Shown: positions 1-53,199 of the stretch, piece by piece
How the letters are laid out: each line of letters opens with the position of its first letter
Numbering within the stretch: the stretch's first letter is position 1
From: a virus
Reading direction: 5' to 3' (one strand)
Length of the DNA stretch: 64,000 bases
IMG/VR virus record: IMGVR_UViG_3300032516_000004
Coordinates: 64,001-128,000 of that record
Position numbers and translations under genes: made by a program
Notes under the pieces: model-generated
Seen by the model: only the letters and a program-made list of their open reading frames with translations
What the model was told of the DNA's origin: nothing
Databases searched by the model: none

Positions 1-5
1 TGCTT

Positions 6-173
6 GATGGTTTAGTGCCACCGCTAGACTATTTAGTTTCACCCCCACTTGGTGGGGCGGCTGCTTCGGCAGTATATAAACTGTTCCCAGCCCGCAATTT
101 CGCGAGCTGTAGAACAAGGTGGGATAACACCCGTACCCTTGGCATAGGGTACAAACGATCGAGGGGCTGCTCG
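6..173 (+). ncRNA. Candidate structured RNA / 5' leader (omegaRNA/HEARO-like position); may extend 5' of the window
   Basis: Back-to-back stems read by eye: 6-17/22-33 (12 bp, 4 G-U pairs), 43-48/52-57, 61-64/69-72 with a C(UUCG)G tetraloop, 82-95/102-116 (interrupted), 118-121/128-131, 133-139/146-152, 160-163/170-173. Ends 3 nt before the ATG of a PLMP-domain ORF. Confidence 0.5.
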
Positions 174-176
174 TGT

Positions 177-1109
177 ATGGGCCGGTCTCAGGAAATTATC
201 GTCCTCGATTCGGAGCGACGATTTCTCGAGTATACGCGACCTGGGACTGCGAGATTGTTGCTAAAAGAAGGCAAAGCACGTGTTTTCTCTAGGCAACCAT
301 TCGCAATAATGCTCTTACGCACGGTGTCAGCTGCCGAGATTAGAAGGAGAATAGTCATGCCAGCACCCCGTAATTTTACTGAGTATTTCCGTAACGAGAA
401 GGATGTGTACGTTCAGAATCTTGCGAACGCACAGGTATCCTGTGAATTCCCTATTGGGCCTAATAGGGTCGAGGGATTCACGTTCCCACACAATCGGGAC
501 CCCATCAATCTGACTCAACATATTCCATTTCATGCTATTAAAGATTCCATGGACTTTCGTAAAATGTTGAGCCGTAGACCCCCAGCCCTTCAACTTTTGA
601 ATGAAGAAGAATATAATGCTTATTTTGAGAAAAGAGCATCACAACAGGGATTAAAAGATAGATCTGGGAAATTAGATATTGATGCGGCTATTGACTCGAG
701 TGAGGAAAAGCGTCGTCGAACCGCAGATAAAAATCTTCGTGAGAATGTAACTGATAAAGACCCAGAACCCATACATGAAGTTATTGAAAGCGGTACCGGT
801 CCCAAGGGTGCTACTCATTTTGGGGAACGTAACCGCGTAATGCCAAAAGAAGTTGTAGCAGAAGACGATATTATTAACCCTCGAGTTCTTCATCTTTGCA
901 ATCAGGTAAAGAATGAGATTCCTGAAGAAGAAAGAATGCCTGCCAAAGACCTGCTTGATGAACTCCAGGGACTTCCAGATTTGAAACTTGATGATCTTGA
1001 GCATATTCGTGCTCATGGATTTTACAAAAGCGTGAAAAAATGGAGTAAACAGAAAATGTCTGAAATATCAGACAGTGAAGAAGCTGAAAACACTTCAGCT
1101 GACGAGTAA
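177..1109 (+). CDS. PLMP/RRXRR-like N-terminal domain fused to a hypothetical phage (probably virion-associated) protein
   Basis: ATG177 follows GAGGGG. IIVLDSERRFLEYTRPGTARLLLKEGKARVFSRQPFAIML matches the IscB N-terminal pattern VLD-x4-LxxTxPxxARxLLKxGKAxVxxxxPFxIxL. A second in-frame ATG357 has AGGAG at 345-349. No RuvC or HNH motifs seen. Confidence 0.7.
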   Translation: MGRSQEIIVLDSERRFLEYTRPGTARLLLKEGKARVFSRQPFAIMLLRTVSAAEIRRRIVMPAPRNFTEYFRNEKDVYVQNLANAQVSCEFPIGPNRVEGFTFPHNRDPINLTQHIPFHAIKDSMDFRKMLSRRPPALQLLNEEEYNAYFEKRASQQGLKDRSGKLDIDAAIDSSEEKRRRTADKNLRENVTDKDPEPIHEVIESGTGPKGATHFGERNRVMPKEVVAEDDIINPRVLHLCNQVKNEIPEEERMPAKDLLDELQGLPDLKLDDLEHIRAHGFYKSVKKWSKQKMSEISDSEEAENTSADE

Positions 1110-1113
1110 TACC

Positions 1114-1476
1114 ATGAATGAATTTACATGTCTTAGTAAAAAGTTAACTATTGCAGCGGCTGGTATTGAAACCATCGGATTAGAAACTGGATATCCATAT
1201 AGGAACTATACCGCTTGGGTATCTATTCCTACACTTGGTATTCTCAATGTGTCGGTTCAGCCAATGTTTGGTGGTTTTACTGATGGTGCCGCCACAACAT
1301 TTACGGCTGCAGGTGTAAAGAAGGCAAAACAAGCGACAACCGATGAGTTGCGACCATCTACTAGAGGCTATCAGTCAACTGATGGCGTTTTACCATTAAA
1401 GAGTGAAATAGTAATTACTAATAGTGGTGGAAGTCCAATCGAAGCCAATATATATTTATTGGCGTCACAAGGATAA
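1114..1476 (+). CDS. Hypothetical protein, beta-rich, probably virion structural
   Basis: ORF within the co-directional operon; start refined to ATG1114 just after the upstream stop. Confidence 0.65.
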   Translation: MNEFTCLSKKLTIAAAGIETIGLETGYPYRNYTAWVSIPTLGILNVSVQPMFGGFTDGAATTFTAAGVKKAKQATTDELRPSTRGYQSTDGVLPLKSEIVITNSGGSPIEANIYLLASQG

Positions 1477-1486
1477 GGAGATTGTT

Positions 1487-1837
1487 ATGACCGAGGAAAC
1501 TAAGAAGTCCACATTTAAGGAAATTGTTCAATTTGTTTATGGGTGGTTGAAGAAGATTAGTTTGCAAATATTTGGCGGCTTATTCATGGAACAGAAAAAC
1601 GGCGAGAAGCTGTGGGTTGCGTCCATGGGTAAGGTATCATTCTGGATTGTATTTGGACACTGTTTGTATATTTGGAATACTACCACCGAAGCCGTAATTG
1701 AAGGCGTAAATACTATTATGCGTGGTAATGTTAGTGACGGTGAACTTTATATTTTGATGACCCTAGTTGGATATCAGGGCGCTAAGCTTGGTAAAGCCAC
1801 TATCGTAGAAGGTATTGCAGCATTTAAAGGTAAGTAG
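1487..1837 (+). CDS. Small membrane protein, holin-like
   Basis: AAGGAG RBS before ATG1487; 2-3 hydrophobic segments (ISLQIFGGLF, VSFWIVFGHCLYIW, LYILMTLVGY) and a basic C-terminus. Confidence 0.5.
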   Translation: MTEETKKSTFKEIVQFVYGWLKKISLQIFGGLFMEQKNGEKLWVASMGKVSFWIVFGHCLYIWNTTTEAVIEGVNTIMRGNVSDGELYILMTLVGYQGAKLGKATIVEGIAAFKGK

Positions 1838-1839
1838 TC

Positions 1840-2178
1840 TTGAAAAACTACGGTCGCTGGATTGTTTTCGGTCTAGTAGCGGTGGGGATCATTACCCTAC
1901 TGCTACTAGTTGGGGTTAACAAGGACCTTAGACAACGCTTGATAGCATTGTTACTCGAACGTAAAGTTAAAACAGCAATTCAAGGCCTTCAAGAACAGGC
2001 CACAACTGCTAAAGCAAAGGCACAAGCTAATCAGATGAGTGCTGAAGAAGCCGAACGAGCTGCTAGAGTTACTGCGGACGCGATTGCTGAACAAAAGCTG
2101 GCCCTTCAATCAGAGTATAAGCAACAAGGATTAACTGCCAATGAGATTGCTGAGCGTTTTCGCGGTCTTGGTATTTAG
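1840..2178 (+). CDS. Membrane-anchored coiled-coil protein (i-spanin/Rz-like)
   Basis: N-terminal TM (WIVFGLVAVGIITLLLLVGV) followed by an Ala/Glu/Gln-rich helical region. Confidence 0.45.
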   Translation: MKNYGRWIVFGLVAVGIITLLLLVGVNKDLRQRLIALLLERKVKTAIQGLQEQATTAKAKAQANQMSAEEAERAARVTADAIAEQKLALQSEYKQQGLTANEIAERFRGLGI

Positions 2179-3961: not shown

Positions 3962-5698
3962 ATGCCTGTTATTAAGTTAATAAATAACACTCTTTATCAA
4001 ATATCAACCACCATTGGTACTGTGGCTCCTGGTATAGGTCAAGAATTAATAGTCCAATATGATACGGTACCAATTCCCATCCAATTATACATTGAATTAG
4101 AAGCTCTAAGACTATATAACCGTATTGAGTATTATGTTAATGAAGATCCAGGGATGCGAGACGAGATTGAGTTAGCACCATATATCCTTGGTTTAATACA
4201 ATATTTCAACAAAATTGGCGAACCAACAGACGGAAGTTTTGCCGATGGATTTTTCAATTACTGGACACAAAACACTTTAATAGCGGATTCAGTAGACCAG
4301 ATATCAGAGCTTTTACTCCAGATCGCACCAACAAGTCCAGGAACCTTAACTGGACTGCAACTAGGCATATCTGGTGTTATCCAGTATTCTGCTAAGATAC
4401 CAAACGGTAATGTTGGTGCTTGGCCAACGCCAGGAACCACCATTTCAAATTTAATAGTAACTAATTTATATAATATATACTCTCCAGATCCACTTACCAG
4501 ATTTAAAGCTGGTAAAGCTAGTGATCCATCTACGGCTGGTTTATTGGAACATTTAGTTAATGGATCTGTAACAGAGAGCTACGACATTGGTGTACATGGT
4601 GTTGGCACTATTGGTAATATAACAATAAATTCTTTGATAGTATATAATGTAATCTGGTTAAAAGCAAACGCAACCATTGCCGTTATACAGCTTACACCAG
4701 GTAGACAGATTCATGTATTAAGACACTCTGAGTCGGGTCAATCGGCAAATACAGAGCTTGTGTATGACGACGTAAATACCATTCAATTATTTTCTGGTGT
4801 ACCAACCGCTGTGTTAAACACTAAAGTATCAAAATGGCTGTCCGGTATTGAGGCCTGGGGGCTAAACACAACCATTGATATTGCCTATATTGCTGCTGCT
4901 GGTATTTTCACTAAGACTTATCACCCCACAGCCGTGGGACTAGTTGAGTGTCCTGGCCATTCGTCTACTGATAATCCAGTTGGTGTGCCGAATGTTAGTG
5001 ACACACTACCGGTATCAAGAACTGTAACATTAGACATTAGTGATGAATCATCTATTGCACCATCTATGAAGTATACGCTTCAAAAGCCAGCTAGAACACC
5101 AGTTATTAATAACGTTGCACTACCACAGCCAATTAATACATACGGTGTTGTTTCAACACCTAAAACCGACGTATTTTTTGATGAGGCTCGACGTGTTGTA
5201 TTGGGAAGCGGCACATTTTCTGGAAATGCAACACCATTTGATTCTACGGTGCCGCTTGTAAATGGTAATGCACAACAAAGACACAACGGTGTTTTACAAT
5301 ATCCAAATCCAACAGATTATCCAGGATTTGTTGGGGCACAACAATATGAAAGATTTATCACTAAGATTGCGGCATCTACTGGACAGCTTACACTCGCAAA
5401 TCTTACTAATCTAACACAGGTATCACCGTATGGTACCGGTGATTTAAATATTTTGATTCATTTAAGCACTACTGGTAAATATTTTGATTTAGGTAAACCG
5501 GTTGGTGCCTTTAATGGCACTGGGTCTGGGAATAGTATGGCGAACTCCATTGGTGCTAGAAATCAAACTTTAAGTCATAATAATGTGTTTGCCTGGAGTG
5601 TTGGAACACACACCACAGCGCTTAACAATAGTGAATATCGACTAATTGTTATTTTTAGAAGTGGCTCCTTAACACTTACTGGCATCACAGAGATATAA
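3962..5698 (+). CDS. Virion structural protein (beta-rich, Gly/Thr/Asn-rich)
   Basis: 578-aa ORF in the structural operon with structural-protein composition; function not assignable. Confidence 0.6.
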   Translation: MPVIKLINNTLYQISTTIGTVAPGIGQELIVQYDTVPIPIQLYIELEALRLYNRIEYYVNEDPGMRDEIELAPYILGLIQYFNKIGEPTDGSFADGFFNYWTQNTLIADSVDQISELLLQIAPTSPGTLTGLQLGISGVIQYSAKIPNGNVGAWPTPGTTISNLIVTNLYNIYSPDPLTRFKAGKASDPSTAGLLEHLVNGSVTESYDIGVHGVGTIGNITINSLIVYNVIWLKANATIAVIQLTPGRQIHVLRHSESGQSANTELVYDDVNTIQLFSGVPTAVLNTKVSKWLSGIEAWGLNTTIDIAYIAAAGIFTKTYHPTAVGLVECPGHSSTDNPVGVPNVSDTLPVSRTVTLDISDESSIAPSMKYTLQKPARTPVINNVALPQPINTYGVVSTPKTDVFFDEARRVVLGSGTFSGNATPFDSTVPLVNGNAQQRHNGVLQYPNPTDYPGFVGAQQYERFITKIAASTGQLTLANLTNLTQVSPYGTGDLNILIHLSTTGKYFDLGKPVGAFNGTGSGNSMANSIGARNQTLSHNNVFAWSVGTHTTALNNSEYRLIVIFRSGSLTLTGITEI

Positions 5699-9142: not shown

Positions 9143-11625
9143 TGGCACTCGAACTATCGGGCTATCAAGACCCAGGCACATACATTGGCGAAGTAGTTAA
9201 CCCGGCTCAAATTTCATTAGCTACGGTCCCAGATGTTCTCGCCATTGTTGCTCATGGTAATCGTAGCAAGCGTTCGACTAATGAAGCGGTAAAGCGTGGT
9301 CAGGTATTTAGTGAAACTCTCACTGTTGCTGGTGTCGCGCCACATACGGCTACTTTAGGTAGCCGTGGTGATCGTAGAGTATCAAACACCACGGTTCGTA
9401 GAACATTGTCTGGTGAAACGATCGAGCTGCCTGATTCTGCGATTAGTTTTGGTTTTGCGGTGTTAACTGGCAGCGTCCTTACTACAGTTGACATTAGTAC
9501 GGCTAAAGCATTTGGTTTCAAGATGGATAATGGACAAGAAATTACTATCCAGCTTGAATATAATATGGCCGCAAGTACAACAATCTCAGGATCGTTGGTT
9601 ATTTCAAAACACCCATTTAGTGGGGTTGCTGGTGCTTCGGCAACACCAGCTGAGATTGCAACGGCTATTAATGCCGCGTTAGTTGCCGCGACTACGCTCG
9701 GATATGGTACAACATACGCAGCCGCCGTAACTGTTTCAACCAATAAATTGGTGTTTACCAGTATTCTTACTACCCCATATTCTGATGTATATATTGTTGC
9801 TCCATTTGCAAATAGCGGAACGGCTGTTTTAGGCTTTACAGTTCCAGCATATGCTTCAACAATTGTCACTATTGCCACCGTATATTACAATGTATCTGCT
9901 ACATATGAAATCGATTATGTGGCGGTGAATACATCTCTTGATCCGCTTACAAACACCGCAACCAAGATTACGCGAACTGGTTCATTTGCCAATGTGACAA
10001 GTTTTTACGAGAATACCGATTATTTACTAACTACTGGTGATATTGACTGGTCGCCAGATACAGCGGCTTCATTTACTGGCTCACCATCTGAAAATTTTGA
10101 TCTCAGCACCAATGATAATATTAGGGTGGCGTTTGATGGTAAAGCTGCAGTAACGATTGATCTTAATAATGGTGCGTTAGCTGGTGTAGTGCCGGGCTAT
10201 GCGGTTCCAGTTGCACCTGCAGCCACTACTGCTGAAGAAGTCGTTAATAATATTAATGCTGTAATAGCTATTGCAGCTAACTATGGACCAAAATACCGGG
10301 CATGTGCTGTAACAGCGGCTACTGGTACTAAGGTCAAGTTGGTGAGTCCGACCGAAGGTATTGCATCTAGCATTGAGCTTTCTGCTCCGACATCATTGAA
10401 TGCGACCGCTGCTATTTTTGGTTTAATTCCTTCACAACTTCCTTATACAGTGCTTGGTCTTGGTTCTAAGCCAGGAATTGGGGTCATTTATTTTATTACG
10501 TACGACTATGATAGACCAACAGCGGATTACAATAATCCTAAGAGATATTTCAGCGAAGATCAGATGACCGCTGATCTTACGCCAGTGTCTATGGCTAATA
10601 TACTGTCAACATATGGACAGATTACATTTGAAAATGGTGCTCCATCGGTAGTGTGTTGCCAAGTTAACGACCTAACACTCCCCGGATTCCCAACCGTCAA
10701 TGAGATTAAATCGGCAATTGATGCGCTGGCGATATCATCTGTCACCACTGATGTGGTGGTAGCTGATACTAGACTTAATGTTCAGACTTACCTAGTGAAC
10801 CATATTGAAGTTCAGAGCTCGCCTACGGAAAAGAATTATCGATCCGGTTGGTTTGGCATGCCGACCAGCACATTGGTTGGTGATAAAGATACCCCAGACA
10901 CATTCGTCTATCGAGCGGCTGTTACACTGCAGGTTGCTCCTGATAGTCCAGCTCGAGGCCGCATGATTCTTGTTGCCCCGTCTGGTGTTGATAGAACAAT
11001 TAGTCTTGAGGATGGTTCGCAGCTCACACTTACCATGAATTCAACAGCATTGTGCTGCGCTATCGCGGCTAGACACACAAGCTTTACATCACCGGCCATT
11101 TCATTAGCCAATAAGACTATCACGGGATTCGACGCCACGACATTCCCCATCTATTTAAAGGCTGAAAGAGCACAACTGGCATCGAACGGTGTTATGGTTG
11201 TGACGATGGATGGTGGAAACCTTCGAATTTTAGATCCAGTTACAACTGAAGCTGGTGGTGGCGCGGCATCCAAGTTTATGTATCGGGAGACCGCATCACA
11301 AAAAGATAATGTCAGCAGGTTAATGGATCAGATAATTTCTAATAATCTGCAGGGTGTTGTGCCTACAGATTTGTCAGATTTCGTGTTCGATATTAAGGTA
11401 TTTGTTGCGGCGGTGTTAACGTCACTTATTGAGACAGGTGCTATTGGTCCATTCAGAGATGCTAATGGCGTGTCACGGGATATTGATCTTTCTAAGGATG
11501 TTCAAGCAGAACAAAGCAAGAATGATCCTACGAAATTCAACTTCCGTTATTGGTTCTTCTTGAGATATCCAGCATTACGATTTATGGGTCAGTTCTCAAC
11601 GGACAACCCATTCTTCAACGCATAA
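9142..11625 (+). CDS. Contractile tail sheath protein
   Basis: N-terminal YQDPGTYIGEV; C-terminal sheath core (LASNGVMVV...LRILDPVTT...F...YPAL) and 827-aa size; followed by tube genes. Confidence 0.9.
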   Translation: MALELSGYQDPGTYIGEVVNPAQISLATVPDVLAIVAHGNRSKRSTNEAVKRGQVFSETLTVAGVAPHTATLGSRGDRRVSNTTVRRTLSGETIELPDSAISFGFAVLTGSVLTTVDISTAKAFGFKMDNGQEITIQLEYNMAASTTISGSLVISKHPFSGVAGASATPAEIATAINAALVAATTLGYGTTYAAAVTVSTNKLVFTSILTTPYSDVYIVAPFANSGTAVLGFTVPAYASTIVTIATVYYNVSATYEIDYVAVNTSLDPLTNTATKITRTGSFANVTSFYENTDYLLTTGDIDWSPDTAASFTGSPSENFDLSTNDNIRVAFDGKAAVTIDLNNGALAGVVPGYAVPVAPAATTAEEVVNNINAVIAIAANYGPKYRACAVTAATGTKVKLVSPTEGIASSIELSAPTSLNATAAIFGLIPSQLPYTVLGLGSKPGIGVIYFITYDYDRPTADYNNPKRYFSEDQMTADLTPVSMANILSTYGQITFENGAPSVVCCQVNDLTLPGFPTVNEIKSAIDALAISSVTTDVVVADTRLNVQTYLVNHIEVQSSPTEKNYRSGWFGMPTSTLVGDKDTPDTFVYRAAVTLQVAPDSPARGRMILVAPSGVDRTISLEDGSQLTLTMNSTALCCAIAARHTSFTSPAISLANKTITGFDATTFPIYLKAERAQLASNGVMVVTMDGGNLRILDPVTTEAGGGAASKFMYRETASQKDNVSRLMDQIISNNLQGVVPTDLSDFVFDIKVFVAAVLTSLIETGAIGPFRDANGVSRDIDLSKDVQAEQSKNDPTKFNFRYWFFLRYPALRFMGQFSTDNPFFNA

Positions 11626-11670
11626 CCCGATGATTGTCGGAGACCTTAAGGTTTAACAGGAGTTTTAGTC

Positions 11671-48226: not shown

Positions 48227-50877
48227 GTTCTAAAGGTTTTATTAAGACGGCCTCCGTCTCCACAATAGCGGTTGCTATTAGTGATGGTAAAATTTTTCAG
48301 AAGTCCGCTGCATACAAAGACGAACAGGGCAGCGCATATCTAAGCGGCTCACGTACAATTGATATTAAAGCGGCTCTGGATATTGTGGCCTCTGAATATA
48401 ATATCTCGCCAAATCCAGAAGATTACGTATTTGAAGCAATTCGTGGTAACACTGCTAACATTCCTAATGAAAATCATGACGCATTTCATAAGAATGAATT
48501 ATTGCGATTCGATCACCGATTGGGCAAGCAAGTTTATCGTACGTATGAGCTTAAGCCACACCATGTACAACATCGAGCAAGTGACCCTAAGGCCGCTCGT
48601 GGCTTTATTGTTGATGCCCACTATAACGACTCAGCAGGGCCACTAGATGAGTGTCCTAATTGTGGTCATAAGACCGCTAGCAAAGAGGGCCGTGATCAAA
48701 GCGGTATTCATTGTGCTAGCTGTGGGTCTGTGGTTAAAGACGAATATGTAGAACTTCTCATAGCCATTGATAAGACTAAAGACCCCACATTTGCCCAGGG
48801 TGTAATGAGTGGTGTTCTTAAGCATGGATCGATGGGATGCAGTTGTCTTCGTACTCGTTGCAATGTTTGTGGTAAAGTCGCGTATACTAGAAGTGAGTTT
48901 TGTGGACATATTGCTCGCGGTAAGGGCAAAGAATATGACGAATCAGAACCTGGTTTTAATCCGATAGCTTTTGTTGTAAAAGGGTCGAAGGATAAGCGAG
49001 CTAGTAAACCCAAAAAGATAGCTAAGTCATTTGAGTGGTGTGAGGGTGTAATTTACGACGAATTTAGTCGTGTTCATGATCCAGCAGATCCTAAAGCAGA
49101 GCAGTATGAGATTCTTAAACTCACGGCTAAGGTAGCTGAACTTGAACATACTGATAAATTACGAAACGAATCAGAAATTCTTACTCTTCAGGCTAGAGTA
49201 GCTGAACTTGAGCGAAAGTTGGGTGAGAAATTGAATAAGATAGCACAAGTAGTTCCTCCGGTAGATCCTATGATGGCTCCCCCGGTGGATCCCATGATGG
49301 CTCCTCCGGTGGATCCAGCAGCGGCTCCTTCCAGTGTTCTTCCCTCTTCAGCTGCTGGACAACCACCGGTTGTTATTAATATTAATGCTCCTGGTGTTGG
49401 TGTTGATTCTGAGCAACCTCTTGAAGAGGTTCCAGCGCCACCTAAGATCCCTATTGAAGAAATGACCCCCGAGAGTGAAGGAATGACCCCCGCTGGACCA
49501 GGTGAAGCTTTAACGCCTGCGGCCATGGGTATTGAAGAAGAGAAGGAAGCCCCAGCCGCTCCAAAACGTGGAGCAAGTGTTGATAGGGCATTGAGAGAAA
49601 TGATTAACAATTTAGGAGGCCCATCCATGCTCCGTTTTGCACAATCTTATAAGCATATTAAGGCAGAAATTACCAGTGCTGGTAATGTTAGAATTTTTGA
49701 TTCAGAGGGAACACTCTTTGTAGTTAAACCAGATCGACTTGATTCGAACATTAAGATAGCGGCCAAGAATCCAGAAGAGCTGGCCAAGTCAGTTTTGACC
49801 ATGGTTGCTGATTTTGGTATTGGCGGCGCTATTAAACGAACCAATGCTATTGTTGGTCCACGTTTGGCTCAGGTTCTTGAGTACGCAACTGACGACATTG
49901 AGGATGAGGATCGTATCAAGACTGATTCTATTAAGGATAAAGAAGATTCTGACATGACACAGGAGCGCGCTAAGCCAGAAGATAGCGCCACTGAGGCTGG
50001 TGAGTCGGCTGATCGTCAAGAGACTCAGGAAGTTAAGGGTCTTGGTGATAATGTTCTTGTGGATCGTGAAGTTGATGTAGAGGATGAGAAACATACTCGT
50101 GAGCCTGGTAAGGATCAATGGGGTGGCTTCAATATTCTTGAGATGCAGGATGCCGACACTAAAGAGAAGCGGGAAAAGAAAGATGTTGGCAAGGATACGG
50201 TCGTGAAGAACATTCAAACAGACCATAAAGAGAAGGTAGCTGAAAAGACAGAATCTAAGAAATATGATAATCAAGTTCACGCTGCCCGCTTAGAGGGTAT
50301 TTACAAGGCACGACTGGAACGGAAGATTGCTGATTTGACCAAAGAGAAGGAAGATTTCAAAAATAATCTTGTGGCTCGAGTTACCCGTGCTATGAAGCTG
50401 GTTGCTCATCGTCAAGCGCTGAATCTTGAATATTCGCCGCTTAAGTTGGCTATGGGTGTTGCGCTTTGTAATAAGCGTGCCCTGAATGATAAAGAGTTTT
50501 ATAATCCCATGGATCAGGGGACCGCAGTTCAGTTGATTGAGGCGGCGTTCAGTGAGCCTATTATTGAGGGTGTGGATAAGGCGGCTTGGGAACACCATAT
50601 CGATTCATTGATTGAACGCGCCGCGTCTGTAATGCAGATGAACGATGAAGCGCTTATGCAGGTGGAGACTGATCTTAGAAATATTAAGACAGCCACTATT
50701 CCGTTTGATGAAGCGGTTGTTAATACGGATGGTGATTTTGAGTTGAAGCAGGCTGCTAAGCAGGGTAATTTGCAGCTTGCACCGAAGCCAGTTGATGACG
50801 CGCCAGCTATTAACAACAAGCGTGAAGCGATTCGACGTGCAGTTGGTACAACTAAAGTGGCTAGTTTAGCGAGGTAA
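48223..50877 (+). CDS. Prohead maturation protease fused to a scaffold-like region
   Basis: KPHHVQH...ARGFIVDAHY, SMGC...CNVCG...FCGHI and EFSRV.DPAD..A are protease motifs of large phages; coiled-coil, Pro-rich and acidic C-terminal regions; lies upstream of the capsid genes. Confidence 0.75.
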   Translation: MSSKGFIKTASVSTIAVAISDGKIFQKSAAYKDEQGSAYLSGSRTIDIKAALDIVASEYNISPNPEDYVFEAIRGNTANIPNENHDAFHKNELLRFDHRLGKQVYRTYELKPHHVQHRASDPKAARGFIVDAHYNDSAGPLDECPNCGHKTASKEGRDQSGIHCASCGSVVKDEYVELLIAIDKTKDPTFAQGVMSGVLKHGSMGCSCLRTRCNVCGKVAYTRSEFCGHIARGKGKEYDESEPGFNPIAFVVKGSKDKRASKPKKIAKSFEWCEGVIYDEFSRVHDPADPKAEQYEILKLTAKVAELEHTDKLRNESEILTLQARVAELERKLGEKLNKIAQVVPPVDPMMAPPVDPMMAPPVDPAAAPSSVLPSSAAGQPPVVININAPGVGVDSEQPLEEVPAPPKIPIEEMTPESEGMTPAGPGEALTPAAMGIEEEKEAPAAPKRGASVDRALREMINNLGGPSMLRFAQSYKHIKAEITSAGNVRIFDSEGTLFVVKPDRLDSNIKIAAKNPEELAKSVLTMVADFGIGGAIKRTNAIVGPRLAQVLEYATDDIEDEDRIKTDSIKDKEDSDMTQERAKPEDSATEAGESADRQETQEVKGLGDNVLVDREVDVEDEKHTREPGKDQWGGFNILEMQDADTKEKREKKDVGKDTVVKNIQTDHKEKVAEKTESKKYDNQVHAARLEGIYKARLERKIADLTKEKEDFKNNLVARVTRAMKLVAHRQALNLEYSPLKLAMGVALCNKRALNDKEFYNPMDQGTAVQLIEAAFSEPIIEGVDKAAWEHHIDSLIERAASVMQMNDEALMQVETDLRNIKTATIPFDEAVVNTDGDFELKQAAKQGNLQLAPKPVDDAPAINNKREAIRRAVGTTKVASLAR
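49255..49320 (+). repeat. 24-nt in-frame tandem repeat (PPVDPMMA x2 plus a partial copy)
   Basis: cctccggtagatcctatgatggct / cccccggtggatcccatgatggct / cctccggtggatcca. Confidence 0.9.
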
Positions 50878-51834: not shown

Positions 51835-53097
51835 ATGAGTGCAGTTATTAATCCGTACAAGCGTCTTGCTGCAGCCGGGGCGGCAAAGCCTACCAGCGAG
51901 CAACGTAAAATGGTTGCAAGTTCTGCCACGCCGAAGGCTGTTGAGCAACATAGGACAAAGGCGGCAGAAAACACTCATCTGGCTTCTCGTGAAGATGAGA
52001 AGGTATGGGATGAGAGTGGAACATTTAACCCCACCGCGTATGCCGGTGAGACGACCCGCGATGGTATTCGTCAAGCGGTTGGCAACACCAAGCTGTCAGA
52101 GCGTATGTTCGACAAGCGTGGTGAAGTTAACGCGTATGATGACAAGGACGCCCTGCAACAGATTGCCTACTTGCTCCAAAGTGTAACCAAGAAGGCATCT
52201 CCTGGCACCTTCTATCGTGAAGCGTCTACTGATATGCCAGCTGAGGAGCGCCGCAAGGTTCTCGCAGCCGCCATGCAGGATCCCTCGGGTGAGGGTTTCG
52301 CGATTGTTGGTCAGGAGTTGTTGCTCCCGATCAAGGACATCATCGATTACGAAGGTTGGGCTCGGAAGATCTATCGGGTTCGGCCACTCGCTCAGGGTGA
52401 GTTGTTCCGTATCGCGAAGGATGTTCGTGCAACGGCTTGGGTTGTGGGACAAGATGGTCAGTCGATTGAGAGCCGTTTGTTCGGTCGTTTCATTCAGCCG
52501 TCAGAGTTCAAAGTTACGGCATTCCCGACCGTCGACATCGAAGACATCTATCAGATGAACTATGATGTTTTGGATCGCGCTCAGGATACCGCTCGTCAAG
52601 AGATCGAGTTGGAAGAGGACAAGCGAGGCTTGGCTCTTCTAGATCGAGCTGCTTTGACCGTGAATTCGGTTACGATTTTCGCGACTCTTGGAATTTCGGC
52701 GTTTGAAGACGTTCGATACCAGGTTGAGCGGCATCGTCTGATGGTTGAGAAGTTCTTGATCAACCGTGCCGAGCTTTCTGATATCGTGAAGACCATGAGT
52801 ACTCAGGTGGATCCGGTGACCGAGCGCGAGTTGATCCTCGCCGGTTATATTGGTAACATCTTGAATGCTCAGATCATCACGGCCGCTGGTACTGGAGTTG
52901 AGGAAGTGGTACCGAGAGGGACATTCTACGCAGCCACCGGTAGTGAGTATCTTGGCGAGATGGGTGTAAGGGTGGAACTGTTTTCTGAGCCCTTCAACAT
53001 GTTTTCGCACCGTCGATTAACGAAGGGTTGGGCGTTTGGCGAGATCGTTGGGTTCGGTATTCCGAACCCACGTAGTGTCAGCAAGGGACACAAATAA
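51835..53097 (+). CDS. Major capsid protein (HK97 fold)
   Basis: AGGAGG RBS; GQELLLPI...DYEG.ARK...QGE...AKD; P..EFKV.AFP.V..EDI; D..Q..A.Q.I..EED; follows protease and decoration genes. Confidence 0.85.
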   Translation: MSAVINPYKRLAAAGAAKPTSEQRKMVASSATPKAVEQHRTKAAENTHLASREDEKVWDESGTFNPTAYAGETTRDGIRQAVGNTKLSERMFDKRGEVNAYDDKDALQQIAYLLQSVTKKASPGTFYREASTDMPAEERRKVLAAAMQDPSGEGFAIVGQELLLPIKDIIDYEGWARKIYRVRPLAQGELFRIAKDVRATAWVVGQDGQSIESRLFGRFIQPSEFKVTAFPTVDIEDIYQMNYDVLDRAQDTARQEIELEEDKRGLALLDRAALTVNSVTIFATLGISAFEDVRYQVERHRLMVEKFLINRAELSDIVKTMSTQVDPVTERELILAGYIGNILNAQIITAAGTGVEEVVPRGTFYAATGSEYLGEMGVRVELFSEPFNMFSHRRLTKGWAFGEIVGFGIPNPRSVSKGHK

Positions 53098-53125
53098 CGC
53101 AACGCGTTATGATTAAGTGATGATT

Positions 53126-53148
53126 TGTGGGGCGCTCGTCGCCCCACA
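53126..53148 (+). terminator. Rho-independent terminator candidate after the MCP
   Basis: TGTGGGGCG-CTCGT-CGCCCCACA stem followed by an AT-rich tract. Confidence 0.6.
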
Positions 53149-53199
53149 TTCATATTAAATCTTACATAATTGGTATATTTTATGCAACTATAGAATAAT

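Follow-up and report, generated by a model that had tools for sequence, protein, structure and literature searches.

A conserved, highly structured leader RNA upstream of a nuclease-free PLMP gene in a large environmental phage

The stretch of DNA analysed in this work, referred to as the window, comprises the 64,000 nucleotides between bases 64001 and 128000 of a virus record of 177,941 bp (IMGVR_UViG_3300032516_000004) obtained from a sediment metagenome. At the very start of the window lies an RNA element of approx. 175 bases that spans positions ~4–183 and reaches across the start codon of the gene that follows, an open reading frame (ORF) of 310 residues that opens at ATG 177. The upstream flank was examined in a separate segment (L001), from which window positions are obtained by subtracting 1500. 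The genes upstream of the RNA are on the opposite strand, and the nearest one starts 65 nt before the window. This divergent block, on the minus strand (L001:2–427 and 424–1435), encodes a DNA methyltransferase of the MT-A70-like type that carries a DPPW motif, as well as three small proteins that are Cys-rich and zinc-ribbon-like; a block of this kind also precedes the RNA in the P0007 contig. Between these genes and the RNA there is a promoter-like site, TTGCTA-N16-TACTAT, that ends 4 nt before the window. A sigma-70 scan did not report this site (8/12 matches, below the threshold); a -10-like element, TAYTATTT, recurs at the same place in the relatives that have no co-directional upstream gene, and from this conservation we infer that the site is a promoter. 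The RNA is single-copy in the 178-kb genome, and a tRNA/tmRNA scan of the locus revealed none. For comparison, 90 related loci were fetched from viral and metagenome contigs and further ones were added by exact look-up; the locus is syntenic with the gene encoding the main part of the downstream protein (the body) across about 45 phage lineages. The RNA is the 5′ leader of a late phage gene, and it sits in the phage head gene block, as anticipated by a preliminary description of this DNA that had assigned it to a virion operon. The features of the locus are collected in Table 1.

Table 1. Elements of the leader RNA and of the PLMP gene, in window coordinates.
Feature	Position	Strand	Description
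P1	6–33	+	12-bp hairpin with four G-U pairs; compensatory changes in 12/12 pairs
Pseudoknot, 5′ side	19–22	+	CACC of the P1 loop, pairs with GGUG 118–121; 100% of cells paired, 16 distinct sequences
P2	43–57	+	CCCCAC/GUGGGG with flanks AC...(A/C)G; double changes in 5/6 pairs; 94.7% of cells paired
P3	60–73	+	UUCG tetraloop at 65–68; double changes in 4/5 pairs; loop varies in relatives
P4 + P5	82–116	+	P4 (82–86/112–116) encloses P5 (88–95/102–109)
AGGUGGG-AUAACA-CCC	117–132	+	Pseudoknot 3′ side (118–121) and short P6 hairpin (122–123/131–132)
P7	133–152	+	7-bp, GUACCCU/AGGGUAC; compensatory changes in 5/6 pairs; 93.5% of cells paired
Shine-Dalgarno of the PLMP ORF	161–166	+	GAGGGG; clade-A relatives all have GAGG(G/A) with the same spacing to the ATG
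P8	169–182	+	GCUC-GUGUAU-GGGC; loop and 3′ arm contain ATG 177–179
PLMP (RRXRR N-terminal) domain and linker	177–356	+	First 60 codons of the long isoform
Internal Shine-Dalgarno and start	343–359	+	GAAGGAGA at 343–350 and in-frame ATG 357–359; likely start of the short isoform without PLMP
Body	357–1109	+	250-residue conserved phage protein with PLMP fused in frame; own ribosome-binding site and ATG

Folding of region 1–180 gave −70.5 kcal/mol with z = −3.3, and only 1 of 200 dinucleotide-shuffled sequences folded as well. The preliminary description had named the 12-bp P1 stem with its four G-U pairs (6–17/22–33), a C(UUCG)G loop at 61–72, corresponding to P3, and a GC content above that of the other intergenic spacers; both stems were recovered, and the GC content is 0.534 for 1–176 versus 0.411 for the whole window. 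Its claim that the region is almost completely folded was also borne out, but not its count of about seven stems, given that eight helices and a pseudoknot are counted here and that the element extends to 183. The view that this is an RNA and not a DNA structure holds as well: the RNA is that of the + (sense) strand, since many pairs alternate between G-C and G-U, and each of the many G-U pairs would leave a C-A mismatch if the opposite strand were the one to fold.

Covariation was evaluated after the upstream regions of 17 relatives with 60–80% protein identity had been aligned with MAFFT; the alignment contains 16 distinct sequences. On this alignment RNAalifold returned 46 pairs, 39 of them with compensatory double changes. 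With the inclusion of a pseudoknot of four pairs, 92.3% of the cells are paired, as compared with 71.5% in column shuffles, where none of 500 reached the observed value, and with 41–46% when the partners were slid by 1–3 columns. Compensatory double changes occur in 40 of these 50 pairs, so covarying pairs are present among the homologues, and the covariation score of 0.641 contrasts with 0.10–0.14 for slid partners; the relatives are non-independent samples, and it is the slid-partner control that addresses their kinship. The structure is far beyond chance, and the region ~4–183 encodes a new conserved and highly structured RNA that consists of helices P1 to P8 and of a pseudoknot in which the P1 loop pairs with J4/6.

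The P1 loop is nearly invariant, with UCCACC in the relatives and CCAC(C) here at 18–22. Its pairing with the distant strand was chosen unprompted by RNAalifold on one of the alignments (A5), and one lineage (L039/L057/L058) swaps C-G to A-U on both sides of the pseudoknot, which amounts to a single compensatory event. P2 takes the form UUUACC-stem-GAG in relatives. In the main P4/P5 helix, compensatory changes are found in 9/10 pairs and 98% of the cells are paired; together with the AG-GU that follows, this helix is part of the core common to distant clades. The stretch at 117–132 carries the invariant AAGGUGGG with the short P6, its GGUGG and CCC being invariant or nearly so, and the P6 stem covaries in distant clades, with double changes in 5/5 pairs. 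P7 is followed by an A-rich linker at 153–156. In P8, two of the three counted pairs show compensatory changes (CG 11, GC 5), 95.8% of the cells are paired, and GUG-Y-AUG is invariant; the Shine-Dalgarno is located in the linker that adjoins this hairpin. An NUG-N always stands before the start codon (173–179 here), in the form GUG-Y-AUG in close relatives and AUGGAUG, CUGAUG or GUGGAUG in distant ones; this NUG is a potential second start, out of frame and four bases upstream. Two additional pairings were considered and discarded: a switch in which the 5′ arm of P2 would act as an anti-Shine-Dalgarno sequence against the real Shine-Dalgarno, with a complementarity that is not consistent across relatives, and a clade-B pairing of GGUG with a downstream CACACC that is not kept in L014 and L017.

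It could be argued that there is no RNA element at all and that the stretch is an N-terminal extension of the ORF or a structure at the DNA level, given that no stop interrupts the frame between the base preceding the window and 1109 and that a product of 369 residues (P0002) has been called from an ATG one base before the window. Nevertheless, relatives carry several in-frame stops across this stretch, which is therefore not coding, and the database call is artefactual, the frame being open by accident. In addition, the substitutions are compensatory across stems instead of codon-like, and the G-U pairs are strand-specific. The probability of this reading is negligible, and the in-frame stops and compensatory substitutions refute it for practical purposes.

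The presence of a PLMP domain in the downstream ORF, noted in the preliminary description, was confirmed by profile and fold. Residues 7–54 match positions 1–48 of the 174-position Pfam family PF14239 (RRXRR) with an E-value of 2e-9 and 37.9 bits against a cut-off of 25, and this is the only PF14239 match in the genome. The domain matches OgeuIscB (E 3e-5) and is 37–46% identical to IscB PLMP domains. In the AlphaFold model (pLDDT 82.5), residues 5–56 superimpose on the N-terminal domain of TbaIscB (9k30_A), which in IscB and IsrB has a beta-beta-alpha-beta-beta fold, with a VIA Z of 9.0 and an rmsd of 1.3 Å over 51 residues at 37% identity; the Z for DtIsrB (8dmb_P) is 8.1. The PLMP tetrapeptide itself reads FLEY in this protein. 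From these profile and fold matches, residues 7–54 are a true IscB/IsrB PLMP domain. IscB and IsrB are transposon nucleases, ancestral to Cas9, and to our knowledge PLMP is known only as their N-terminal, omegaRNA-contacting domain. In the phage protein, Pfam and fold searches detected nothing similar to RuvC, HNH or TI after residue 60, and the fold matches to IscB and IsrB cover residues 4–60 only; the PLMP ORF accordingly does not encode an RNA-guided nuclease, i.e., RuvC with or without HNH, plus TI. In the literature searched, a PLMP outside OMEGA nucleases is not described, nor is a phage PLMP or its leader RNA. The locus is of interest as a case in which PLMP was separated from all the nuclease parts and kept for long in a large family of big environmental phages; with the phage PLMP and its leader, the dealings of this domain with RNA can be studied in a minimal system that occurs in nature, and the leader defines a new RNA family that could go to Rfam.

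The body that follows the PLMP domain has more than 100 homologues. Its fold matches are limited to uncharacterised proteins of the jumbo phages PaBG, Motura, BcepSaruman and phiRSL1; searches for its function gave no Pfam family and one weak PHROG family of unknown function, and those in BFVD, VIA-wide and ESM Atlas returned only uncharacterised phage proteins or generic helical matches. The Met at the junction with the PLMP part is conserved in most of 36 aligned homologues. Several database entries for this family are short (~225–300 residues), and the seven that were checked all have PLMP upstream, either in frame (L096, L098, L099, L105, L106 and L108) or as a separate overlapping ORF (L107), the gene callers having chosen the internal start. 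Since the internal start is conserved and PLMP lies upstream in all seven of these, it is likely, from the sequences, that the gene makes two isoforms from two in-frame starts, a long one with the nuclease-free PLMP and a short one that lacks it. In a relative with 82% identity (L032/L095:115–262), a deletion and a frameshift break the PLMP frame, while the RNA and the internal start stay; this could reflect decay or an assembly error.

The preliminary description had also pointed out that the RNA lies in the position of an omegaRNA, and had offered two possibilities for its nature, an omegaRNA derivative or a new structured RNA. The position is indeed that of omegaRNA (~200 nt): the phage RNA is found directly 5′ of the PLMP ORF and runs into its ribosome-binding site, ending in the Shine-Dalgarno and the ATG. 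As to its nature, the second possibility is the better supported. A search of window 1–2000 with all 4227 Rfam families at E ≤ 10 gave only matches at chance level, none of them to HEARO (RF02033), for which the criterion was the Rfam gathering threshold of 83 bits, and none to pRNA. As a positive control, two real IscB genes from cultured cyanophages were located by their PLMP domains, and HEARO was detected upstream of them with 129.1 bits (L103) and 82.7 bits (L102). Because the controls match with the same search, the phage RNA does not belong to HEARO; as a test for omegaRNA at large this search is incomplete, given that Rfam holds only one omegaRNA model. In the opposite direction, both HEARO loci were searched with a covariance model built on the phage RNA (R1) and with the filters disabled, and nothing matched there.

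The solved complexes allow a comparison of the layout. In the OgeuIscB omegaRNA, a hairpin loop (C93–C96) pairs with G155–G158, and an A-rich linker leads to terminal hairpins that are recognised by PLMP (PMC9640706). In DtIsrB, SL7/SL8 and the Shine-Dalgarno that closely precedes the IsrB ORF are in contact with PLMP, and a control of expression was suggested by the authors (PMC9581776). The phage RNA has a loop-strand pseudoknot, which one compensatory event supports, an A-rich linker and hairpins by the Shine-Dalgarno, and it is the corresponding 3′ part of omegaRNA that contacts PLMP in the solved complexes. The helix order is however different, and so is the topology, since P1 is outside P4 whereas the nexus pseudoknot hairpin of omegaRNA, the loop of which pairs with a strand 3′ of the nexus stem, is inside that stem. 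In contrast with IscB/IsrB systems, the phage locus lacks RuvC, HNH and TI and shows no recognisable guide or transposon ends; upstream of the RNA there is a capsid stop codon or a promoter-like site, and no repeat or IS200/605 end motif was seen there. Furthermore, omegaRNA systems are mobile and often multi-copy, in contrast to this single-copy RNA, which is conserved vertically within the head gene block. The resemblance to omegaRNA is one of position and, loosely, of layout.

A diverged omegaRNA descendant would nevertheless account for several of these features. An IscB or IsrB element could have been inserted between the capsid and body genes, and a single deletion of RuvC, HNH and TI would then have fused PLMP in frame and left the RNA upstream. 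The appeal of this scenario is that one step gives the present arrangement: it explains where the RNA lies, why PLMP is fused in frame and why the body gene still has a Shine-Dalgarno and an ATG; the identity of the PLMP domain to those of IscB, and an order of hairpin loop, G-run pseudoknot, A-rich linker, hairpin and Shine-Dalgarno that recalls the OgeuIscB omegaRNA (PMC9640706), point in the same direction. The failure of the covariance models in both directions, the placement of P1 outside P4, which departs from the nexus, and the lack of a visible guide segment or IS200/605 ends argue against it. Descent from omegaRNA is attractive but unproven, and we regard it as unlikely; it is a claim on origin, compatible with a leader that is bound by PLMP and with one that acts independently of it.

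The distribution of the two partners across relatives provides additional evidence. When 1.84 billion representatives were scanned with a phage-type PLMP profile (HMMER), 1653 proteins matched at E ≤ 1e-3, and many of these have only 52–135 residues; a word-index search for free PLMP proteins of 33–105 residues had given no candidates, due to the limit of the index, but the full HMMER scan found many. In most of the lineages examined, a covarying structured RNA is found in the omegaRNA position. Distant clades, with 33–49% protein identity, carry a reduced core, UUAAC-stem-AG-GU-GGG-loop-CCC, in which both stems covary (83.6% of cells paired versus 37–53% with slid partners). A core model derived from the distant clades (R2) finds this reduced core in their remaining members and aligns weakly to P4–P6 of the present RNA (window 76–147) with an E-value of 0.12, which is rough, as are all those from models with a short calibration. 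In two distant relatives, tRNA-like sequences with a T-arm and an acceptor end with CCA are located just upstream of the reduced RNA (L013:1527–1570 and L059:~930–1010).

Simpler arrangements are also found. What remains in some AT-rich phages (L067/L107, L072, L056) is one AC-stem-AG hairpin, which lies over either the Shine-Dalgarno or the start codon that belongs to the PLMP ORF. One clade has PLMP as a separate gene of 59–71 residues before the body gene (L065, L067, L107, L109–L111); the stop codon of these free-standing ORFs (e.g., L107:1310–1504, L109:560–775 and L111:1369–1560) overlaps the body start or precedes it by 8–19 nt, and the multi-helix RNA is absent. Models R1 and R2, applied to the split-PLMP loci L105–L111, gave a match in L108 only. 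A GC-rich clade (L076:2240–3440, L080; P0126) has two tandem PLMP domains on a protein of ~400 residues, with an ORF that abuts the upstream gene and no intergenic RNA; P0126, the closest long PLMP protein, is thus a phage protein with tandem PLMP domains and not an IscB. Altogether, an intact PLMP with its invariant Arg occurs with no multi-helix RNA in split (L065, L109–L111), fused (L054, L060/L075) and tandem (L076–L080) forms, and since several lineages keep PLMP in this way, the function of the domain is not strictly dependent on the leader. The sole lineage of the body protein seen to lack PLMP (L090/L094) has a terminator hairpin and a Shine-Dalgarno but no core RNA, a comparison that stands on this one lineage.

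The relation of the RNA to the capsid gene differs among genomes. The major head gene (phrog_2522) of nine close relatives ends 25–40 nt before P1, which in these genomes is a perfect GC-rich stem of 12–13 bp followed by UUU(U). P1 reaches −25 to −33 kcal/mol in the relatives with a co-directional gene just upstream and is weak (−6 to −18 kcal/mol) where the RNA follows the promoter-like site, with −14.7 kcal/mol here. In the present genome, by contrast, 52 kb separate the PLMP gene from the head gene (window 51835–53097; 87% identity to its counterpart in L009), after which comes an ordinary GC hairpin, both within window 51835–53150. Its adjacency to the RNA in the nine relatives indicates that the head module was rearranged, and the fact that the RNA was kept here, away from the capsid gene, indicates that it belongs to the PLMP gene. 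A scan for intrinsic terminators (a GC-rich hairpin plus at least 5 U) found no site in L001 1200–2000, and the stronger P1 of the relatives has only 3–4 U.

These observations bear on a leader that acts in cis and needs no protein partner, in which P1 would be a terminator or attenuator that also protects the 3′ end of the capsid mRNA, and the other helices would stabilise the mRNA and fix a low initiation at the first AUG relative to the internal one. Such a leader would agree with the correlation between P1 stability and a co-directional upstream gene, with the clades that keep PLMP but not the RNA, with the P2-like hairpins found before other late genes that have no PLMP domain, and with the partial occlusion of the start codon that P8 produces by itself. 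A plain attenuator or stabiliser, however, could do without an invariant pseudoknot from loop to strand, without as many as eight helices that covary and without single-stranded motifs that do not vary (UCCACC, AAGGUGGG and GUGYAUG); moreover, no simple terminator is found in this copy, the RNA remained with the PLMP gene when the capsid gene moved away, and the lineage without PLMP replaced it with a plain hairpin. We consider this explanation, the main rival of the one that we favour, possible but doubtful.

The reading we favour, to which we give somewhat less than an even chance, is that of a new cis-leader RNA that is bound by the PLMP domain and controls the synthesis of its own long isoform, with P1 serving in addition as an attenuator behind the capsid gene. 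According to this proposal, the PLMP domain of the long isoform would bind the leader in the manner in which PLMP of IsrB and IscB binds the 3′-terminal hairpins and Shine-Dalgarno region of omegaRNA, and once bound it would hold closed the ribosome-binding site and the start-codon hairpin (161–182). The long isoform would thus limit its own synthesis, while the internal start would go on making the short one. Where the capsid gene is directly upstream, P1 would probably have a second role, either attenuating read-through or protecting the 3′ end of the capsid gene; in the present genome, the transcript would start at about P1 (predicted window 2–5), after the promoter-like site.

This reading is supported by the covariation of a non-coding RNA structure on the sense strand, the identity of the PLMP domain, the persistence of the RNA with the PLMP gene after the capsid gene moved, the absence of the core RNA from the PLMP-less L090/L094, the persistence of a core with covarying stems at 33–49% protein identity, the placement of the minimal hairpins over the Shine-Dalgarno or the start of the PLMP ORF, and the precedents of DtIsrB and OgeuIscB. 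It is weakened by the several lineages that keep PLMP without a multi-helix RNA, by the covariance models, neither of which finds a similarity to omegaRNA, and by the AC-stem-AG hairpins that stand before other late genes. The attenuator role of P1 is in turn supported by the way in which its strength tracks the upstream context.

The proposed control resembles that of well-known autogenous operators, such as the ribosomal-protein leaders, T4 gene 32, regA and the MS2 coat-protein operator, where the leader includes the Shine-Dalgarno and the start of the gene for the RNA-binding protein; the minimal phage variants, with one hairpin over the Shine-Dalgarno or the start, are particularly similar to the MS2 operator. 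It differs from them in that the phage leader is unusually large and pseudoknotted, in that a second, internal start would escape the control, and in that the candidate binding domain is a PLMP. Similarly, P1 is reminiscent of the intrinsic terminators or attenuators that follow phage capsid genes, since in nine relatives it comes directly after the capsid stop codon; unlike these, its loop is conserved and pairs with a distant strand, its U run is short, and it is kept, although weakened, where no gene is upstream. The locus gives a concrete case in which the reuse of an OMEGA component, be it in gene regulation or in assembly, can be put to the test.

A role in assembly would correspond to a stable RNA acting separately, either in the virion or its assembly, where the long isoform would hold it much as the phi29 pRNA is held, or as a regulator in trans, in which case the pairing of the P1 loop with GGUGG could be intermolecular. 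The size of ~175 nt, the compact fold, the location in the head gene block, the fusion of an RNA-binding domain to a head-region protein and the conservation of a pairing of loop-loop type would be in agreement with it. Against this, the RNA passes at its 3′ end without a break into the ribosome-binding site and start codon and lacks a separate terminator, neither pRNA nor any other Rfam family was matched, and the body protein has no known virion role. A separate RNA is, in our view, very improbable.

Finally, hairpins similar to P2 were found at other late genes, and for this reason the AC-stem-AG hairpin may be a general feature of leaders instead of one specific to PLMP. On the + strand of the whole genome there are 6 hairpins of the P2 type versus 2.2 ± 1.6 in Markov simulations, an excess weakly above chance that keeps open the idea that PLMP might act on several leaders. 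An extension of this idea is that PLMP and the RNA are a domesticated, nuclease-free OMEGA remnant that works as a ribonucleoprotein switch, in which the PLMP isoform, or a free PLMP of 60–70 residues, would recognise AC-stem-AG in its own and in other late leaders and so coordinate late translation. We hold this to be improbable; if true, an IscB-derived RNA-protein pair would for the first time have a known function other than DNA targeting. One of the P2-type hairpins, UUAACCCCUCAUUGAGGGAGG, is located at genome position 48464–48503 (L112:1463–1503) and is followed by the Shine-Dalgarno and AUG of a gene of 106 residues; another is found at window 11625–11646, where the Shine-Dalgarno and ATG that follow belong to the first tail-tube paralogue (11671). 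Both are of the form AAC-stem-AG and resemble P2 and the clade-B core, and similar hairpins occur at one site each in L096 (~4893–4912) and L006 (~5048–5075).
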